Assembly: GCA_964405765.1 (NCBI GenBank)
Contig: CAYOPC010000004.1
Coordinates: 1 to 41,232, forward strand
Length of the DNA: 41,232 nt
Reading direction: 5' to 3'
Source of the DNA: an uncultured Gammaproteobacteria bacterium
GTDB lineage: Bacteria > Patescibacteriota > Microgenomatia > UBA12405
Shown: positions 3,634-40,345 of the stretch, one piece after another
Position numbering within the stretch: the stretch's first letter is position 1
Layout of the letters: every line of letters begins with the position of its first letter
The notes under the pieces: model-generated
What the model was told of the DNA's origin: nothing
What the model saw: the letters and a program-made list of their open reading frames with translations, nothing else
Databases searched by the model: none
Position numbers and translations under genes: made by a program

Positions 3634-3757
3634 CTCAATCTCCCCTTAATCCCCTCTTTCACAAGAGGGGAAAATAAAACCCCTCAGCCCCGACTAAAGT
3701 CGGGACAGCTCCCTCGCCTCGAATCCGAGTTGGAGCGGGCATTGAAAAATAGAGGGC
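3634..3757 (+). repeat. two abutting palindromic repeat units (type A + type B with nested hairpin)
   Basis: CAATCTCCCC..CCCCTCTTTCACAAGAGGGGAAAA, followed by AAACCCCTCAGCCCCGACTAAAGTCGGGACAGCTCCCT[CGCCTCGAATCCGAG..]. Nearly the same string recurs at 21936..22017. Confidence 0.85.
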
Positions 3758-3773
3758 TTTAAGACAATAATTA

Positions 3774-19150: not shown

Positions 19151-19271
19151 GAGGATATTTTAGCACGAAACTCTTTTTATCTGTCCTTTGACAGAACAAA
19201 AGTTTAATGAAAAAGATGATAATGTAGATAAGTTTTTATTTATATAAAAAATTTTTTGGTTTTAGAAAATA

Positions 19272-19949
19272 ATGGAAAATACTGGCGAAAAATTTATAGC
19301 AATAAAGCATAGTGATAATAGTCAAACTACTGTTGAGCTCATAAATAAAGAGGACGGCAAAATTCATTCGGGATTACATAAGGTTGTTGCCGCAGTTTTG
19401 TCAAAAGACGGCGAAGATGATGGGAGAAAGATAGAAATCCCTATGATTAGAAAAAAAGTAGCATCCGCAGATGGTTATTGTGAATATTGGGAAAGATTAA
19501 GAAAGGCCGCTATTCCGACTATACCTACCGTTAGGAAAATTAGTGAAAATGAAGTTTTAATGACCGATTTAACAAAAGACGGAAGTTCATTTTATGGTAA
19601 AGATAGTGTTTTTGGTTGTTTTAATAGATTTAAAAAAAATGAAATTAATATCTTAGATAGGTATTTTTTAGCTATTCAGACAAGTGTTTTAGAAAACGAG
19701 ATAAGGGGGATATCTCGTAAAGCTGATGAAAATGGAATAGTTTTACCGATTGACGACCCGTTTGATTTATTGGTTCATCCTGGTGGTAGTTGGGAAGTAT
19801 TAGTACTAGACCTAGAAACAGAAAGCTACAATACTTCAGAAGATCAGATTAGGATGTTTAATATTGAGAGTGTTGGTCATTATTTGACTTTGCTGAAAAT
19901 AAATAGAAATAGTTTATTAGGGAAAGAACCCCCATCGATTATTTCTTAG
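19272..19949 (+). CDS. hypothetical protein (faint kinase-fold-like motif)
   Basis: 225-aa ORF. VLMTDLTKDG and DLLVHPGG..VLVLDLE loosely resemble the hinge and catalytic/DFG-like segments of APH/RIO-type small kinases. This is not secure. Confidence 0.45.
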   Translation: MENTGEKFIAIKHSDNSQTTVELINKEDGKIHSGLHKVVAAVLSKDGEDDGRKIEIPMIRKKVASADGYCEYWERLRKAAIPTIPTVRKISENEVLMTDLTKDGSSFYGKDSVFGCFNRFKKNEINILDRYFLAIQTSVLENEIRGISRKADENGIVLPIDDPFDLLVHPGGSWEVLVLDLETESYNTSEDQIRMFNIESVGHYLTLLKINRNSLLGKEPPSIIS

Positions 19950-19983
19950 GTCTAATCTGGTTGGGTAGAATTTACTAGAAAAT

Positions 19984-20568
19984 TTGAGTGATAAAATTAG
20001 GGATATGACTCAAGAAGAAATATATAAACTTCACCAAAAATATGCCGAAGGAGAAAAGCAAAAAGAATTGTTGGATTTGGTCTGGGGACATAGCCTGATT
20101 GTCAGAGATATAGCTATGCAATTGGCCGATAATTTGATTAAAAAAGGAATAAAGATTAATAAAGAATTGGTGGAAATTGGAACATTAGTACACGACATCG
20201 GTTGTTATGATTATTATAAAAAAATTAATAATATGCCGTATATTTTGCATGGGGTAAGAGGTTATGAGATTTTGAAAAATGAGGGTTTTGAGGAAGAAAT
20301 TGCCAGAATAGCGACGATACATTTGGGTGTAGGGTTAATAAAAGAAAATGTATTGGCAAATAATTTACCATTGGAAGCAAAAGATTATATTCCAATAACT
20401 TTAGAGGAAGAATTGGTGGCTTATGCAGATAATTTTCATTCTAAGAAGGGCCCGGTTTTTATAAATTTTAGTGAAGCTAAAGAAAAATTAGCTGGTTTAT
20501 GGAGTGAATCGCCGATAATTTTTGAAAGGTTTAGGAAAAAGTTTGGAGAACCGGAAATTAAACCCTAA
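19984..20568 (+). CDS. HD/HDIG-domain metal-dependent phosphohydrolase
   Basis: H...LVHDIGCYD...H motif set. The start may be the TTG at 19984 or the ATG at 20005. The last codons and the stop lie inside repeat 20560..20602. Confidence 0.72.
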   Translation: MSDKIRDMTQEEIYKLHQKYAEGEKQKELLDLVWGHSLIVRDIAMQLADNLIKKGIKINKELVEIGTLVHDIGCYDYYKKINNMPYILHGVRGYEILKNEGFEEEIARIATIHLGVGLIKENVLANNLPLEAKDYIPITLEEELVAYADNFHSKKGPVFINFSEAKEKLAGLWSESPIIFERFRKKFGEPEIKP

Positions 20569-20602
20569 CCCTTCCCTTTCCCTTGACAGGGCAAGGGTAA
20601 AA
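20560..20602 (+). repeat. palindromic repeat unit (type C)
   Basis: AAACCCTAACCCTTCCCTTTCCCTTGACAGGGCAAGGGTAAAA. It supplies the K-P-stop end of the HD-domain ORF. Confidence 0.9.
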
Positions 20603-20671
20603 GCCAATTAGACTAGGTTGATGATATAATTTATGTGATAGAAATAGTGGAAATTAAGACAAAACCTAATG

Positions 20672-20767
20672 TTCAATCTCCCCTACCCCCTCTTTGACAC
20701 GAGGGAGAAAAGACAAACCCCTCAGTCCCTCGTTGAACTCGGGACAGCTCCCTTTGACAAGGGAGCC
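20672..20767 (+). repeat. two abutting palindromic repeat units (type A + type B)
   Basis: TTCAATCTCCCCTACCCCCTCTTTGACACGAGGGAGAAAAG, then AAACCCCTCAGTCCCTCGTTGAACTCGGGACAGCTCCCTTTGACAAGGGAGCC. Confidence 0.85.
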
Positions 20768-20782
20768 TCTAAAAGAAAAAAT

Positions 20783-21928
20783 ATGGAGATAATTGATATT
20801 AAAAATAACTATAATCAAGTAATAAAAAAAACAGCTGAAATAATTTTGGCTGGTGGATTAGTAGTGTTTCCGAGTGATACGGTTTATATTTTGGCAGTGG
20901 ATGCGACTAACGAAAATGGAGTAAAAAAGTTACTCGAATTTAAAAATAGGTGGACCGGAAAAGCCATTTCGGTAGCCGTGTTGGATGAGAAAATGGCTGA
21001 GGATTATGTGGTGTTAAATGAAAACAGCAGAAATATTTATGAAAATTTGTTGCCGGGACCGTTTACTATTGTAAGTGAAGGCAAGCATCAAGTAGCTGCC
21101 GGAATTGAGGCGGAAAATGGAACTTTGGGAATAAGAATTCCGGATAATAAATATATTCATGATTTGGTGGAATTGGTGGGTAAACCAGTGACGGCAACTT
21201 CGGCAAATTTGTCAGGGAGGACACCGAATTATTCGATTCAAAGTTTTTTGAGGCCATTGTCAAAAAAGAAAAAAGCTATGATTGATTTGATAGTTGATGG
21301 CGGTAAATTGCCAAAAAATAAACCCTCAACGGTGATTGATGCGACTGAATCGGAAATAAAAATTTTAAGACGAGGAGATTTGATTACTGGAAAAACTACC
21401 AGTTTCATTAGCAAGTCGGAAAAAGAGACAGAAAAGATTGCGGAGTTTTTGTTGAAAAGATCCAATCTTCCCCCTTCCCCCTTCTTTCACAAGACGGGGG
21501 TAAAACAAAATAAGCCGTTGGTGTTTTTATTGAGCGGAGATTTGGGTTGCGGAAAGACAGTTTTTAGCCGGAAAATAGGACATTTATTGGGAGTAAAGGA
21601 AAAGATTACTAGTCCAACTTATATGATTTATAATGAGTACAAAACCCTAACCCCCTCCCCCTTTCCCTTGACAGGGCAAGGGGAGAAAATGATCAAATTT
21701 TTACATATGGATTTGTATAAAATTACATCGGAAAAAGATTTGGAGGAAATAAAATTTCTTACTCTATTTTCTGAAGATACAGTCAGTTGTATTGAATGGC
21801 CGGAACAAATGGGAGAAAAATTTTTGAAAAAATTGAGAGAAAAAACTAAGGTAGTTTCGGTGAATTTTGAATATATAGATCAGGAGACGAGAAGTATTAG
21901 TTTCTCAGCTGATCAGTTGGTCAGATAA
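20783..21928 (+). CDS. fused L-threonylcarbamoyladenylate synthase (TsaC/YrdC domain) and t6A ATPase TsaE
   Basis: The N-terminal half has the YrdC/Sua5 pattern (GGLVVFPSDTVYILAVDA, TATSANLSG, PSTVID). The C-terminal part has the TsaE P-loop GDLGCGKT and SPTYMIYNEY...HMDLYK. I place the start at the ATG at 20783, because the 38 upstream codons are repeat-derived. Confidence 0.75.
   Translation: MEIIDIKNNYNQVIKKTAEIILAGGLVVFPSDTVYILAVDATNENGVKKLLEFKNRWTGKAISVAVLDEKMAEDYVVLNENSRNIYENLLPGPFTIVSEGKHQVAAGIEAENGTLGIRIPDNKYIHDLVELVGKPVTATSANLSGRTPNYSIQSFLRPLSKKKKAMIDLIVDGGKLPKNKPSTVIDATESEIKILRRGDLITGKTTSFISKSEKETEKIAEFLLKRSNLPPSPFFHKTGVKQNKPLVFLLSGDLGCGKTVFSRKIGHLLGVKEKITSPTYMIYNEYKTLTPSPFPLTGQGEKMIKFLHMDLYKITSEKDLEEIKFLTLFSEDTVSCIEWPEQMGEKFLKKLREKTKVVSVNFEYIDQETRSISFSADQLVR
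21462..21510 (+). repeat. palindromic repeat unit (type A) inside the tsaC-tsaE ORF, in frame
   Basis: CCAATCTTCCCCCTTCCCCCTTCTTTCACAAGACGGGGGTAAAACAAAA, translated NLPPSPFFHKTGVKQN. Confidence 0.9.
21641..21689 (+). repeat. palindromic repeat unit (type C) inside the TsaE domain, in frame
   Basis: AAAACCCTAACCCCCTCCCCCTTTCCCTTGACAGGGCAAGGGGAGAAAA, translated KTLTPSPFPLTGQGEK. Confidence 0.9.
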
Positions 21929-21935
21929 TCAGATC

Positions 21936-22017
21936 AAAACCCCTCAGCCCCGACTAAAGTCGGGACAGCTCCCTCGCCTCGAATTCGAGTCGGAGCGGGC
22001 CTTAATGAAAAGGAGCC
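21936..22017 (+). repeat. palindromic repeat unit (type B with nested hairpin)
   Basis: Near-identical to 3676..3757, differing in GAATTCGAGTCGGAG versus GAATCCGAGTTGGAG. Confidence 0.9.
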
Positions 22018-22140
22018 TTTTAAAAATTATGGTAAAATGCCTAAATTTAAAACATATGAATAATAAAGAAAATCCAAATAGAATATTAGCTCCAAAAAAG
22101 AGAGATAAGGGTAGAGAAAAATTTTGAGATGCAGATTTTA

Positions 22141-22827
22141 CTAGAGTAATTTGAAGGAAGAGATAAAGGTTTCACACTCGGTTTTGAGAGTGGCATTGCC
22201 ATTGTGGACACATTGAATAGTGTAGTTTTTACTATTGGATTGAATATCGACAATGGTTTGAGCGGCGATGTCGTAGCGGAATGATGGTTGGCCAGCAATC
22301 AAAGAGTTATCGTCAAATTGACGGTCAGGGTGAGTCCAGGACCATTGACCGTTTAAGCCAACATGAACGGCAAAATTACCTGAGGACAGGTAAAAGGTAT
22401 AGCGATTACCGGAGCTTTCGGTATCCTGATAAAGTTTTCTGCTGGTAGAGTAGTCGACAGAAAAACCATCTTGGTCAGAGGTAAAAGTTTCGATACCAGA
22501 TGAAGAAGTTGAAGTTGGGGTAGTGGTTGGAGTGAGGACTGGTATTTTGGTTGGAGTAATAGTATTTTTGGCGGTAGTTGGGGTAACTTTTCCGGAAATA
22601 GAGGCAATTGGAGTGATAATTGAGGCAGAGGTAGAGGCTGGAGTGATAGTATCGGTTTCTTCATCCGGTGAATCAGTTGGGAGTAATTCTATTTTGGGAG
22701 TGGTTTCGGAAGTATAAATGTTTTGTTGGTTGGTTTGATAAACTTGAAAGAGGAAATACCCACCAATTACTGATAAAATCAGCAGAAATAAACCTAAAAT
22801 TAAATAAGTACTATTTTTAGTTGACAT
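22141..22827 (-). CDS. membrane-anchored protein with Thr/Pro-rich linker and globular C-terminal domain
   Basis: I place the start at the ATG at 22827 (MSTKNSTYLILGLFLLIL..). TM anchor, then TPTTTPTSTSS-type linker. No enzymatic motif recognised. Confidence 0.55.
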   Translation of the reverse strand: MSTKNSTYLILGLFLLILSVIGGYFLFQVYQTNQQNIYTSETTPKIELLPTDSPDEETDTITPASTSASIITPIASISGKVTPTTAKNTITPTKIPVLTPTTTPTSTSSSGIETFTSDQDGFSVDYSTSRKLYQDTESSGNRYTFYLSSGNFAVHVGLNGQWSWTHPDRQFDDNSLIAGQPSFRYDIAAQTIVDIQSNSKNYTIQCVHNGNATLKTECETFISSFKLL

Positions 22828-22851
22828 ATTTATAGTTAATAATACAAACAA

Positions 22852-24123
22852 ATGAAAATATTGGCAATAGAGACGAGTTGTGATGATACTTGCGCGGCTG
22901 TTTTGGAAAACGACCGAGTGCTGTCAAACGTGATTTCATCGCAGACTGATTTGCATGCCAAATGGGGCGGAGTAGTGCCGGATATTGCTAAAAGAGCACA
23001 TACGGAGAGAATTGAGGCAGTAATTGCGGAAGCATTAAAAAGAGCAAAACCTTCCCCTTCCCTTGACCCTCCACTTCGGCGGGCAGGCAGGGTGGGGCAT
23101 AAATTATCCCCTGAAGAAATAATTGAGAGAGAAGTTAAAAATATTGATGTGATTGGGGTGACACAGGGGCCGGGGTTGGCAATTGCTTTGGGGATTGGAG
23201 TAAATAAAGCCAAAGAACTGGCGAAAAAATATAATAAAAAATTGGTGGCGGTAAATCATATTGAGGGGCATATTTGGGCAAATTTTTTGAAAAATAAAAA
23301 GGGAAAACCGGAAAGAGAATTGGAATTGCCGGCGATGGCATTGACGGTGTCAGGAGGACATACAAAAATAATACTAATTTCTAATAACCAATTTCTAAGT
23401 CAAAACCTAGAAGAACTCAATCTTCCCCCTTCCCCCTTCTTTCACAAGACGGGGGTTAAAACAAACCCTTCCCAAACCCTTCCCTTGACAGGGCAGGGCT
23501 TAAAACTCAATCTTCCCCTAACCCCTTCTTTAACAAGACGGGGAATAAAACAGAAGTTAATTTATACGGTTGTTGGAGAGACGTTGGATGATGCGGCGGG
23601 AGAGGCTTTGGATAAAGCGGCAAAAATGTTGGGGTTGGGATATCCGGGCGGACCGATTATAGAAAGATTGGCGAAAGACGGTGAGATAAATTTCTTGGAT
23701 CTTCCCCACCCACTGGCTGACAAAAAAATATTGGATTATAGTTTTTCGGGTTTAAAAACCAGTTTTTATTACAAAATAAAAGATTGGCCAAAAGAAAAAA
23801 TTTATCAAAATTTGAATAATTTGGCGGCGACTTTTCAGAATGCAGTGTTGGAAACATTATTGAGAAAATATAAATTGGCCATAGCTAGATACCAACCAAA
23901 AACGTTGCTAGCAAGCGGCGGAGTGTTGGCAAATTTGGAATTGAGAAAAAGGTTAAGAAAATTAGCCAAAGAAGTTAATTTACCAATTTATATGCCGGTC
24001 CATAAAAATTTAAATACAGATAATGCGGCCATGGTTGGAAGAGTGACATATAATAAGGCACTGATGGGAGAATATGTTGAGGATATAGACGCGTTGGATA
24101 GAGACCCGAGACTTACTATTTAA
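22852..24123 (+). CDS. tsaD: tRNA N6-adenosine threonylcarbamoyltransferase TsaD, carrying in-frame repeat insertions
   Basis: MKILAIETSCDDT, GVTQGPGL, HIEGH, SGGHT, GETLDDAAGEALDK, GYPGGP, FSGLKT. 423 aa, against about 340 aa for typical TsaD. Confidence 0.9.
   Translation: MKILAIETSCDDTCAAVLENDRVLSNVISSQTDLHAKWGGVVPDIAKRAHTERIEAVIAEALKRAKPSPSLDPPLRRAGRVGHKLSPEEIIEREVKNIDVIGVTQGPGLAIALGIGVNKAKELAKKYNKKLVAVNHIEGHIWANFLKNKKGKPERELELPAMALTVSGGHTKIILISNNQFLSQNLEELNLPPSPFFHKTGVKTNPSQTLPLTGQGLKLNLPLTPSLTRRGIKQKLIYTVVGETLDDAAGEALDKAAKMLGLGYPGGPIIERLAKDGEINFLDLPHPLADKKILDYSFSGLKTSFYYKIKDWPKEKIYQNLNNLAATFQNAVLETLLRKYKLAIARYQPKTLLASGGVLANLELRKRLRKLAKEVNLPIYMPVHKNLNTDNAAMVGRVTYNKALMGEYVEDIDALDRDPRLTI
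23046..23097 (+). repeat. palindromic repeat unit (type C with nested hairpin) inside tsaD, in frame
   Basis: AAAACCTTCCCCTTCCCTTGACCCTCCACTTCGGCGGGCAGGCAGGGTGGGG. Compare 29123..29184 and 31459..31520. Confidence 0.85.
23416..23552 (+). repeat. three abutting palindromic repeat units (A-C-A) inside tsaD, in frame
   Basis: CTCAATCTTCCCCCTTCCCCCTTCTTTCACAAGACGGGGGTTAAAACAA / AAACCCTTCCCAAACCCTTCCCTTGACAGGGCAGGGCTTAAAA / CTCAATCTTCCCCTAACCCCTTCTTTAACAAGACGGGGAATAAAACA. Confidence 0.9.
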
Positions 24124-24170
24124 TTAAGAATTAATAATTAATAGTTAATAATTAATAGTTAAGAGTTAAT
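24121..24170. repeat. AT-rich TAATTAA-type motif block
   Basis: TAATTAAGAATTAATAATTAATAGTTAATAATTAATAGTTAAGAGTTAAT. Related blocks at 24518, 26693, 31181 and 40292. Confidence 0.75.
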
Positions 24171-24513
24171 TTTTTGATGTTTTTAATATTTTAGTAATTA
24201 TCTTGATAATTTCTTCACAATCACTTATTAATGAACAACTTTGAGTTTGATTTAAATAACCACTTTTGTTTAACAAATTAATCCAATAAAGAGTTTCTCT
24301 TGATTCTTTATAGGCGACAGAGATTTTAGAAATAAAGTCTTTTTTGGATTGACCGCCAAGAGCTTCTTGAATATTTGCTCCGATTGACGTGCCACTTCTG
24401 AGTAATTGTTTGGATAAAATAAATTCTTTTTTATTTTCTTTAAGATATTTATAGAGATTAATTATTCTGAGAGCAAAATCAAAACTTTTTTGAGAGACAA
24501 TACTGTCTTTCAT
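24166..24513 (-). CDS. four-helix-bundle protein (23S rRNA intervening-sequence protein family)
   Basis: SFDFALRIINLYKYL....LSKQLLRSGTSIGANIQEA....DFISKISVAYKESRETLYWINLL is the hallmark pattern of this family. Confidence 0.85.
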   Translation of the reverse strand: MKDSIVSQKSFDFALRIINLYKYLKENKKEFILSKQLLRSGTSIGANIQEALGGQSKKDFISKISVAYKESRETLYWINLLNKSGYLNQTQSCSLISDCEEIIKIITKILKTSKN

Positions 24514-26674: not shown

Positions 26675-26692
26675 AAGAAATGATAACAGGAA

Positions 26693-26729
26693 AATAATTA
26701 CTAATTAATAATTAAGAATTAATAGTTAA
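26693..26729. repeat. AT-rich AATTAATAATTAAGAATTAAT motif
   Basis: AATAATTACTAATTAATAATTAAGAATTAATAGTTAA, 18 nt upstream of the rnhA start and abutting repeat 26728. Confidence 0.75.
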
Positions 26730-26775
26730 ACCCTTTGTCGTGATAAATCACGACATTTCCCTTAAAAAGGGAAAC
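26728..26775 (+). repeat. palindromic repeat unit (type E)
   Basis: AAACCCTTTGTCGTGATAAATCACGACATTTCCCTTAAAAAGGGAAAC. Confidence 0.9.
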
Positions 26776-30593: not shown

Positions 30594-31179
30594 GACTGCT
30601 AAGAGCAGAGTTGAGAGTGGAAAAACTGGTAGCGACATCATCAAAAAGAATGAGGTTTTGAGGAATGGGTAAAATTGGAGTAAAGGCTTGATGAAGGTTT
30701 TCTAATCGTTTTGGGTGACTTTTAATTTTTGCCTGTGAATGGGTATATTTAGACCGTAAAATAATCTGATCAGAAAATTTGAGATTTAGTTTTTGAGAGA
30801 TAGATTGACCAAGTAGAACAGATTGATTAAATCCACGCCAGTTTTGGCGGGAGTAATGAAGAGGAATAGGAGTTAGAACAAAATTATTTTGTTGCCAGTA
30901 TTTAATCAGATGAGGATAACATTTTTTGAGTTTTTGAGTAAAAATATTACTCATTTCGTCGGTGATATCGGTGGTAAATTCATATTTTAAAGATTGAATA
31001 GCGCGACGAATAAGGCCATGGAAATAAAAAAGACTAAGCCGGCCCTCTTTGGGTGGGTGGGAAGAAAATTTGGGAGAATGATATTTAATTTGTTGTTGAC
31101 AGTTAGGACAAAAATATTGACCGGCACGGCCGCAACCAAAGCAGGTTTTAGGAAAGAGAAGGTCGATGATAAAAGACAT
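30544..31179 (-). CDS. ComF-family phosphoribosyltransferase-like protein
   Basis: N-terminal double CxxC (CFGCGRAGQYFCPNC) and a C-terminal LILFDDVATS PRT-type motif. The convergent 50-nt overlap with the SPFH gene is tolerated. Confidence 0.7.
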   Translation of the reverse strand: MSFIIDLLFPKTCFGCGRAGQYFCPNCQQQIKYHSPKFSSHPPKEGRLSLFYFHGLIRRAIQSLKYEFTTDITDEMSNIFTQKLKKCYPHLIKYWQQNNFVLTPIPLHYSRQNWRGFNQSVLLGQSISQKLNLKFSDQIILRSKYTHSQAKIKSHPKRLENLHQAFTPILPIPQNLILFDDVATSFSTLNSALSSLTSYGLSRCWYLTLAG

Positions 31180-31180
31180 A

Positions 31181-31216
31181 TTAATTAATAATTAAGAATT
31201 AATAATTAATATTAAT
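31181..31216. repeat. AT-rich AATTAATAATTAAGAATTAAT motif
   Basis: TTAATTAATAATTAAGAATTAATAATTAATATTAAT, starting 2 nt upstream of the comF-like ATG. Confidence 0.75.
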
Positions 31217-31217
31217 A

Positions 31218-31520
31218 CACAATCTCCCCCTAACCCCCTTCTTTGACCCACCGACAGTTTCTCAGTCTGGTGGGCAGGCAAGAGGGGGAATCAAAACCCC
31301 TCAGGCTCGCTTTTCTCGCCAGCTCCCCTTGATAAAGGGGAGCAATTTTTCTTTATAGTGTCCGTGGTAGGATGAGGATAAAACCCTTTGTCACGATAAA
31401 TCGTGACATTTCTCCCGCAGTAGCGGGACTTACGCCTTAAAAAGGGAAACTTTAAAATAAACCCTAACCCTTCCCTTTCCCTTGACCCTCCAGAGGCGGG
31501 CAGGCAGGGCAAGGGTAAAG
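31218..31520 (+). repeat. cluster of four palindromic repeat units (A-nested, B, E-nested, C-nested)
   Basis: Units at about 31218..31296, 31293..31343, 31380..31450 and 31459..31520. Three of them carry an extra hairpin inserted in their own loop. Confidence 0.85.
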
Positions 31521-40278: not shown

Positions 40279-40291
40279 AGCTTATTATAGC

Positions 40292-40323
40292 AATTAATAA
40301 TTGATAATTAAGAATTAACAATT
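40292..40323. repeat. AT-rich AATTAATAATTAAGAATTAA motif
   Basis: AATTAATAATTGATAATTAAGAATTAACAATT, 13 nt upstream of the PH-domain gene start. Confidence 0.7.
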
Positions 40324-40345
40324 CTGTTTTTTTTCGATATTGATT

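Follow-up and report, generated by a model that had tools for sequence, protein, structure and literature searches.

Palindromic repeats that lie in frame within protein-coding genes are classically known from Rickettsia, where Rickettsia palindromic elements (RPEs) were reported in housekeeping genes (Ogata et al. 2000 and 2002, via PMC10969869). Here we analyzed a 41,232-nucleotide stretch of DNA (contig CAYOPC010000004.1 of assembly GCA_964405765.1, hereafter the window) from an uncultured bacterium of the Patescibacteriota, in which two kinds of short repeat, units A and C, interrupt the TsaE part of a fused tsaC-tsaE gene of the N6-threonylcarbamoyladenosine (t6A) pathway. The source genome (G000) comprises 764 kb in 86 contigs with 36% G+C, the window being contig C4, and close homologs of the TsaC-TsaE protein bear Candidatus Shapirobacteria names, a lineage of the Candidate Phyla Radiation (CPR). 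We consider it probable, at about 0.68, that the units are RPE-like repeats tolerated in permissive loops of TsaE. As far as RPEs are described in the source cited above, the likeness is that dispersed palindromic repeats of a small AT-rich genome are found in frame in many housekeeping genes with the ORF (open reading frame) preserved, and that the extra peptide sits where the fold tolerates insertion. Unlike RPEs, which measure ~100–150 bp and belong to an alphaproteobacterium, the units are 40–50 nt, about 3 times shorter, and come from an unrelated lineage; the two are likened in their outcome. The three-arm mirror layout of the units, their strict chromosome-strand rule and slots that turn over among many subfamilies are further differences from RPEs as described there.

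Two other described systems are also close. Repetitive extragenic palindromic (REP) and REPIN elements are, like the units, many-copy short imperfect palindromes (20–40-nt) with compensatory stem variation (PMC2817692, PMC3116915, PMC3733652), and, as in systems with REP-associated tyrosine transposases (RAYTs), candidate RAYT-like genes for HUH tyrosine transposases are present in this genome and in relatives. However, units A and C lack the GTAG or CGTC tag of REPs at the 5′ foot of the hairpin, having AAACCC or CAATCT leaders instead (GTAG hairpins form a separate family in this lineage); they do not flank RAYT-like genes, and nearly half of their copies are intragenic. With the PIT, BoxC and TM-ECO motifs the units share two mirrored pyrimidine arms and one complementary purine arm on one strand within ~37–45 nt, a triplex layout that is known here from sequence alone. 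The E. coli TM-ECO triplex motifs are always intergenic, show no strand bias and mark locally variable DNA (PMC4666352). The units are likewise tied to locally variable DNA, but they are often intragenic (20/44) and strand-polar (43/44).

The host gene was read as a single 419-aa ORF (20669–21928, + strand) that contains both units. Since Pfam found, above the curated cut-off, Sua5_yciO_yrdC (PF01300; residues 57–236, 2.6e-44) and TsaE (PF02367; residues 250–407, 9.6e-27) in this one ORF, it encodes a TsaC-TsaE fusion. Such a fusion is not mentioned in a 2022 review of t6A enzymes (PMC9654439); most of the 30 relatives that we searched within the order have TsaC and TsaE joined in a single protein. 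Note that these Pfam ranges count from the 419-aa ORF, and that residue numbers of slots, motifs and the structural model count from the ATG at 20783 (MEIIDIK), which is probably the true start and is common to orthologs and two of three near-identical strains. The AlphaFold2 model of the fusion matched structures of TsaC/YrdC (1K7J, TM-score 0.84; 1HRU) and TsaE (1HTW, 0.74; 6N9A_E, 0.68). In the 119 orthologs collected for the comparisons below (65–89% identity), the TsaE Walker A (GxxGxGKT), SPT(F/Y), HxDxY and EW motifs were invariant, as were K54, R56, S140 and N142 of the TsaC domain. In addition, three other near-identical protein sequences from European Nucleotide Archive (ENA) records hold both inserts unchanged. 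The assembly is a fragmented metagenome assembly, which might have raised the suspicion of an artefact, and the gene might have been a decaying pseudogene; both are ruled out by the invariant catalytic motifs and the near-identical ENA sequences, gene order is syntenic in relatives, and we give this explanation practically no weight. Stop codons, which the preliminary description of this DNA had named as a sign of pseudogenes, were also looked for, and no intragenic copy was found in a stop-containing frame.

We placed the two units by profile search with nhmmer at 21462–21510 (unit A) and 21642–21692 (unit C), and their translations, NLPPSPFFHKTGVKQN and KTLTPSPFPLTGQGEK, are read within the single ORF, both as previously described; the predicted junction peptides of this read-through are SNLPPSPFFHK and TLTPSPFPLTGQGEK. 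Comparison with homologs shows both units to be true insertions: at slot 1 (unit A) the window has 22 residues and the shortest orthologs 7, at slot 2 (unit C) the figures are 19 and 6, and in H. influenzae HI0065 (1HTW) a turn of 5 residues takes the place of unit C. In the AlphaFold2 model, computed with the ortholog alignment, the mean predicted local distance difference test (pLDDT) score was 79.8, and segments of at least 3 residues with pLDDT<50 were the inter-domain linker (199–205), the unit A peptide (230–242), the unit C peptide (294–299) and the C-terminal tail. Slot 1 is modelled between helix 1 of TsaE (213–226) and the P-loop strand (246–252), and thus inside the TsaE domain and outside the linker. 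The preliminary description had put unit A in the linker before the P-loop; the position before the P-loop is correct, but the unit lies 15 residues inside the Pfam TsaE match and not in the inter-domain linker. Slot 2 is modelled as the turn between strands 283–289 and 303–310, and unit C, at this hairpin tip, parts SPTYMIYNEY from the FLHMDLYK motif as had been noted. The comparison with TsaE structures that had been proposed therefore maps the inserts to the alpha1-beta1 loop and the beta-hairpin tip.

This position bears on why the inserts could be tolerated. In the T. maritima TsaBDE structure, TsaE contacts TsaBD via helix alpha3, the beta5-beta6 link and the ATP/SPT(F/Y)T face, and the SPT(F/Y) motif enters the TsaD active site (PMC6009658). 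The SPT motif begins the first strand of the beta-hairpin and the HxDxY motif closes the second, suggesting that both slots point away from the TsaBD/ATP face. From topology, and not from coordinates, slot 2 (at the tip of the hairpin) and slot 1 (where the P-loop strand starts) would accordingly be expected on the side opposite to the ATP/TsaBD contacts.

Large insertions in the orthologs were restricted to three internal slots (residue ~8, slot 1 and slot 2) and the two protein ends. Mostly-gap alignment columns corresponded to an N-terminal extension, residue ~8, residues 229–241 (slot 1), residues 294–304 (slot 2) and the C-terminus, with large insertion columns spanning residues 225–246 at slot 1 and 287–305 at slot 2. 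Slot 1 was expanded in 73 orthologs and slot 2 in 100, including 67 with both, and 13 had neither. At least 8 classes of repeat peptide were found per TsaE slot, among them unit C in two frames, unit A, two-hairpin units, the CCCTCCCTTGAAAAGGGAGGG family and AT-rich repeats. The GTAG-tagged REP of the lineage (read as VET..SLQ) was present in slot 1 only, in 8 orthologs, and the peptide TLTPxPFPLTGQGEK was found in 16 orthologs. At the DNA level, slot 1 holds unit A in the window and unit C in L037 and L039, each 41 nt long with identical flanks (AAAAGATC and CAAAAT), a two-hairpin unit in L033 and a GTAG hairpin in L038. Every slot-2 cassette starts directly after the Tyr codon of NEY and stops before AAR-TTT-TTR-CAT. 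On the host-gene tree, the occupant class changed at least 63 times at slot 1 and at least 59 times at slot 2, compared with 69.4 ± 1.7 and 77.4 ± 2.5 for shuffled labels; these counts are rough lower bounds, as the tree was built with FastTree from ~330 columns with the slot columns left out, and the classes were defined by crude regular expressions.

Further repeats were seen at these and similar positions. The third slot, near residue 8 of the TsaC domain (alignment columns 46–79), carries repeat peptides in several orthologs (e.g., TNPSVTSSVTSPLKKGRN, NPSKSTFDKG and QNPPTLRVSSLEKG) and has no insert in the window. An AT-rich dispersed repeat (TTAATAATTAAGAATTAA...) occurs in the window at 24110–24176, 26677–26729, 31171–31209 and 40287–40325 and is replaced in the sister strain by another AT-rich repeat (TCTAATGTCTAATTTCTAA...); AT-rich repeats of similar kind occupy TsaE slot 2 in some orthologs (LINFQFSKSNFQ, KIKNDQYLISNDQ).

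If the inserted peptides were adaptive parts of TsaE, for example flexible arms reaching to TsaB, TsaD, tRNA or the TsaC domain, the expansion of most orthologs at one or more slots and the recurrence of the TLTPxPFPLTGQGEK peptide would be explained. However, the peptide classes that alternate in each slot are unrelated, short alleles exist, and the inserts have no confident structure in the model. The same units are moreover found antisense, in other frames of unrelated genes and between genes, and conservation is seen at synonymous sites (see below), not at residues alone. We therefore regard an adaptive role of the peptides as improbable.

The units were next characterized as a repeat family. 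Each opens with an A-rich leader (AAACCC or CAATCT), followed by two pyrimidine arms of which the second mirrors the first. A 4-nt loop (TGAC or TCAC) then leads into a purine arm that complements this second arm except for one fixed T/C mismatch, and TAAAAC forms the tail; units adjoin one another at TAAAAC junctions. A profile search (nhmmer, E<1e-3) found 44 unit A/C copies in the genome. A scan for hairpins with a C-rich 5′ arm gave 109 strand hits, corresponding to 61 loci (58 once tRNA and one other hit were removed), whereas a Markov shuffle gave 6. Mirror identity between arms 1 and 2 was 0.8–0.9 for the majority of unit A copies and core unit C copies (0.90 for the slot-1 unit A copy, whose hairpin at 21477–21500 is preceded by the mirror-image pyrimidine arm) and 0.33–0.73 in the C1 subtype; the mean over the 58 loci was 0.64, compared with 0.50 ± 0.013 in shuffled upstream segments. 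The mirror arm covaries among subfamilies, and nearly all variants of the unit C core are compensatory double changes (CCCCTCCCT/AGGGCGGGG and TCCTTCCCT/AGGGCAGGA). It is these compensatory variants that support the structure, rather than single-sequence folding, whose z-scores were modest (−1.8 to −2.1), as sequences this rich in C and G fold even when shuffled. At gathering-score stringency no Rfam covariance model matched the units, and across 20500–23700 none did even at E≤1; our literature searches did not find a description of such repeats in CPR bacteria.

When 81 genomes of the order were scanned for the 22-nt core of unit C, it occurred within a single taxonomic family; G000 and G031 had 26 copies each, other genomes had 0–7, and the reversed pattern, used as a control, gave 0. 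The exact 22-nt core was identical in several genera of that family, and other families were without it; together with the copy numbers, this distribution suggests bursts or transfer. Small hairpins with TTCG-type loops were seen nested in the loop of a unit C or of a first hairpin (23047–23087, 31459–31519 and 31394).

The preliminary description had pointed out that tsaE and tsaD, two genes of the t6A pathway, share a repeat-encoded peptide in the same reading frame, which is the case: the tsaD peptide NLPPSPFFHKTGVKTN is encoded by a 94%-identical unit A copy read in the same frame as unit A in tsaE. It had also suggested selection of frame or strand among surviving insertions, and the genome-wide tabulation does not bear this out. 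The unit A consensus is stop-free in two sense frames, the third containing TAA, and in the unit C consensus two sense frames and all three antisense frames are open, TGA closing the third sense frame; the chance that two sense copies share a frame is therefore one half. Intragenic unit C copies occupied all five open frames, with sense readings PLTGQG (4 times) and SLDRAG (once) besides a nested copy in tsaD, and antisense readings PALSREG (5 times), PCPVKG (3 times) and PPCQG (once). The sole visible effect on frame was that the TGA frame is unused, i.e., stop avoidance.

Regarding the strand, 20 of the 44 unit A/C copies lie in ORFs of at least 100 aa, 10 sense and 10 antisense, and strict hairpins inside genes were 12 sense and 13 antisense. 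On the other hand, with the elements masked from the background, the C-rich strand of the unit coincided with the G>C strand for 43 of 44 copies (binomial p=5e-12), and this held on all 20 informative contigs. The GC skew spans the whole strand, having the same sign for genes of both strands and reaching 0.4–0.68 at third codon positions. Repeat orientation is a property of the chromosome strand, without selection through translation. Because tsaCE was on the G>C strand at all 20 loci examined, the sense reading in tsaE and tsaD follows gene position, and a peptide of the antisense type was seen in none of the 119 tsaCE orthologs. About half of the unit copies are intergenic, although the ORF map calls ~92% of the genome coding, suggesting that most insertions into genes were presumably lost. 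We also considered that intergenic copies might have split genes; this was rejected, as the five tightest tandem pairs next to intergenic copies are distinct genes (EF-Ts/S2, RfbB/RfbC, Map/FolD and others, named by eye).

Inserts in genes need not be translated. The Magnusiomyces mitochondrial byp inserts are short and GC-rich; they disrupt the reading frame, and ribosomes pass over them. Units A and C, as short GC-rich hairpins within genes of an AT-rich genome, bear a formal likeness to byps and might analogously be bypassed by the ribosome or cut from the mRNA. Unlike byps, however, the units always keep the frame and contain no stops: all inserts in the 119 orthologs are in frame and stop-free, a set that is biased to called ORFs, and six-frame searches of 18 same-genus genomes found internal stops at the gene end only. 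Removal or bypass would also impose no rule against the stop-containing frame, which intragenic copies leave unused. We thus consider untranslated units very improbable.

Taking the RPE-like reading, short non-coding repeats of the lineage itself would have lodged in two TsaE loops and would simply be translated, adding 13–16 loose Pro/Ser/Leu/Gly-rich residues. Such inserts are presumably translated and harmless, and they may be tolerated as both loops would sit at strand ends that point away from ATP and from the surfaces touching TsaD/TsaB. Orientation would be set by the chromosome strand and frame by stop-codon avoidance, so that tsaE and tsaD come to read the same peptide. The two loops would be long-standing landing slots whose occupants are often replaced by other members of the superfamily, GTAG-type REPs, AT-rich repeats or a short remnant.

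As for how the units spread, they may move as single-stranded hairpins at the replication fork, perhaps via RAYT-like HUH transposases. IS200/IS605 elements transpose as single strands at the replication fork, and the strand polarity of the units would fit such a mode by analogy. Two RAYT-like genes were found in G000, one at C5:4735–5421 (−) encoding 228 aa and a shortened one at C38:4722–5036 (+) encoding 104 aa; both have the HUH motif (MPNHVHIL and MPNHIHLIL) and match NF047646 with E ~1e-6, below the curated cut-off. Versions in relatives have 190–220 aa and add WQRNY(Y/F)E or WQPR(F/Y)HD motifs. These RAYT-like HUH tyrosine transposase genes of G000 and of relatives L017–L032 fall into two families, and several of them contain in-frame hairpin repeats in their own coding sequence (e.g., VETPDLASLQ and NVGYCGKDVGAYCNTPL). 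GTAG-tagged hairpins (GTAGAGACG..., (GTA)GGGGCG...) lie upstream of some RAYT-like genes in relatives. One unit C copy was found 43 nt upstream of the truncated C38 gene in G000. We could not adopt RAYT as the cognate enzyme of units A and C, as the flanks hold GTAG hairpins instead; a link between them would be conjectural.

Several observations weigh against the RPE-like reading. First, in cassettes shared between species, third codon positions were 88–100% identical, compared with 54–71% in the remaining gene, and four-fold sites were identical at 46 of 47 positions, compared with 286 of 521 in the rest of the gene (Fisher p=1e-10). A neutral passenger should drift, so that these frozen sites indicate some constraint on the nucleotides. 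Second, the slot-2 copy of the window shares 93–94% identity with its orthologs in L033 and L038 but no more than 87% with any other copy of the same genome, which points to vertical inheritance and nucleotide-level conservation rather than homogenisation by paralogs. Homogenisation within the genome, which we had considered as the source of the frozen sites, is thus unsupported at slot 2, and at slot 1 the same comparison was non-discriminating (96% vs. 94%). Third, no clean empty site or target duplication, which together with terminal inverted repeats would mark a MITE, could be defined at the TsaE slots, because short alleles look like remnants; for example, AGTTTGAAACAA in L002 is like the tail of the L033 unit. 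Fourth, units A and C were beside RAYT-like genes at none of the 9 loci with an ORF that were read in relatives. Finally, the evidence on which strand is leading is conflicting: most G000 genes are on the C-rich strand and the opposite holds in the 80-kb regions around dnaA of G010 and G018, no skew switch occurred within 40 kb of dnaA in these two near-complete relatives (G010:C1:19001–99000; G018:C2:53001–133000), and dnaA in G000 is on a 2-kb contig.

Mainly because of this unexplained synonymous constraint, we gave weight to a function at the DNA level, in which the DNA or RNA structure of the units would itself be useful, as a strand-polar signal for replication, repair or the chromosome or as a recombinogenic slot, and the coding loops would merely be carriers. 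Besides the frozen sites and the vertical inheritance of the slot-2 cassette, this explanation would account for a chromosome-strand polarity that is strict and independent of gene direction, for the compensatory stems, and for mirror-arm covariation typical of intrastrand triplex motifs. Triplex motifs in E. coli mark variable DNA (PMC4666352), and strain L048, which is 98% identical to the window, differs exactly at repeat-bearing slots: it has the same in-gene inserts, different elements at the intergenic slots 20560–20620 and 26725–26758, and a differing loop in a first hairpin at 31394. However, copy numbers range from 0 to 26 among same-genus genomes, the 13 orthologs mentioned above have nothing at either slot, and unrelated occupants replace one another, whereas a needed signal would be less dispensable. 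A structural function is thus unlikely in our estimation, and toleration of RPE-like repeats remains the reading that we prefer.

The coordinates of the features are collected in Table 1. The 38 codons 5′ of the probable start consist of repeat units that are open by chance, and the 419-aa database protein probably starts too early by this stretch. Gene callers append this stretch as a 38-aa N-terminal extension; the gene calls of orthologs and of two of the three near-identical strains lack it. Similar repeat-encoded N-terminal extensions are present in several TsaC-TsaE orthologs. Between leuS and the HD-domain gene (19170–19989 of the window, 3743–4365 of L048), a non-homologous gene on the opposite strand in L048 replaces the 225-aa ORF 19272–19949 of the window, and this region is a small variable gene cassette.

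Table 1. Positions of the tsaC-tsaE gene, its motifs and the associated repeats in the window.
Feature	Position	Strand	Basis or remark
tsaC-tsaE fusion gene	20783..21928 (stop 21926–21928)	+	381 aa from probable ATG 20783; Pfam, orthologs, AlphaFold2 model
Open in-frame stretch upstream of probable start	20669..20782	+	unit A-type copy 20672–20718, two-hairpin unit ~20719–20770
Unit A copy in slot 1 (TsaE alpha1-beta1 loop), read as NLPPSPFFHKTGVKQN	21462..21510	+	nhmmer E=4e-14; hairpin 21477–21500
Walker A codons (GDLGCGKT)	21536..21559	+	G252, G255, G257, K258 and T259 invariant in 119 orthologs
SPTYMIYNEY, conserved SPT(F/Y) motif and strand leading to slot 2	21611..21640	+	ortholog alignment
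Unit C copy in slot 2 (beta-hairpin tip), read as KTLTPSPFPLTGQGEK(MI)	21641..21692	+	nhmmer 21642–21692, E=5e-12; hairpin 21658–21683
FLHMDLY, returning strand with HxDxY (switch II) motif	21698..21718	+	ortholog alignment
Unit C copy spanning the stop codon of the upstream HD-domain gene	20560..20606	+	98%-identical strain holds a different element there
94-nt composite repeat directly 3′ of the tsaCE stop	21936..22029	+	85% identical to window 3676–3769
Tandem unit A, unit C, unit A in tsaD	23415..23553	+	peptide shared with tsaE comes from the first unit A (94% identical)

With the present repeats, the outcome classically known from Rickettsia is seen in an unrelated CPR lineage that is highly reduced; the elements are much shorter and built differently, and the 119 orthologs are enough to follow the process. 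Few fixed slots, at least ~60 occupant changes per slot and frozen synonymous sites in the cassettes go beyond the known picture, and together they provide a natural map of TsaE loops that tolerate 15–40 extra residues. A tentative proposal, possible but not one that we favor, is that loops of essential proteins in this CPR lineage act as heritable landing slots for strand-polar triplex-type DNA elements, with cassettes of unrelated sequence swapping far faster than the host gene diverges and the resident being almost frozen at synonymous sites while it stays. If true, this would call for a machinery of site-directed integration or replacement, or for a DNA-level function inside coding sequence, neither of which has been described for bacterial repeats. 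For the annotation of CPR genomes, caution is needed, since repeat-encoded stretches lengthen proteins, give false N-terminal extensions and produce spurious shared "motifs" in unrelated proteins. Should the nucleotide constraint reflect function or targeted integration, it would represent a new interplay of mobile DNA and coding sequence.

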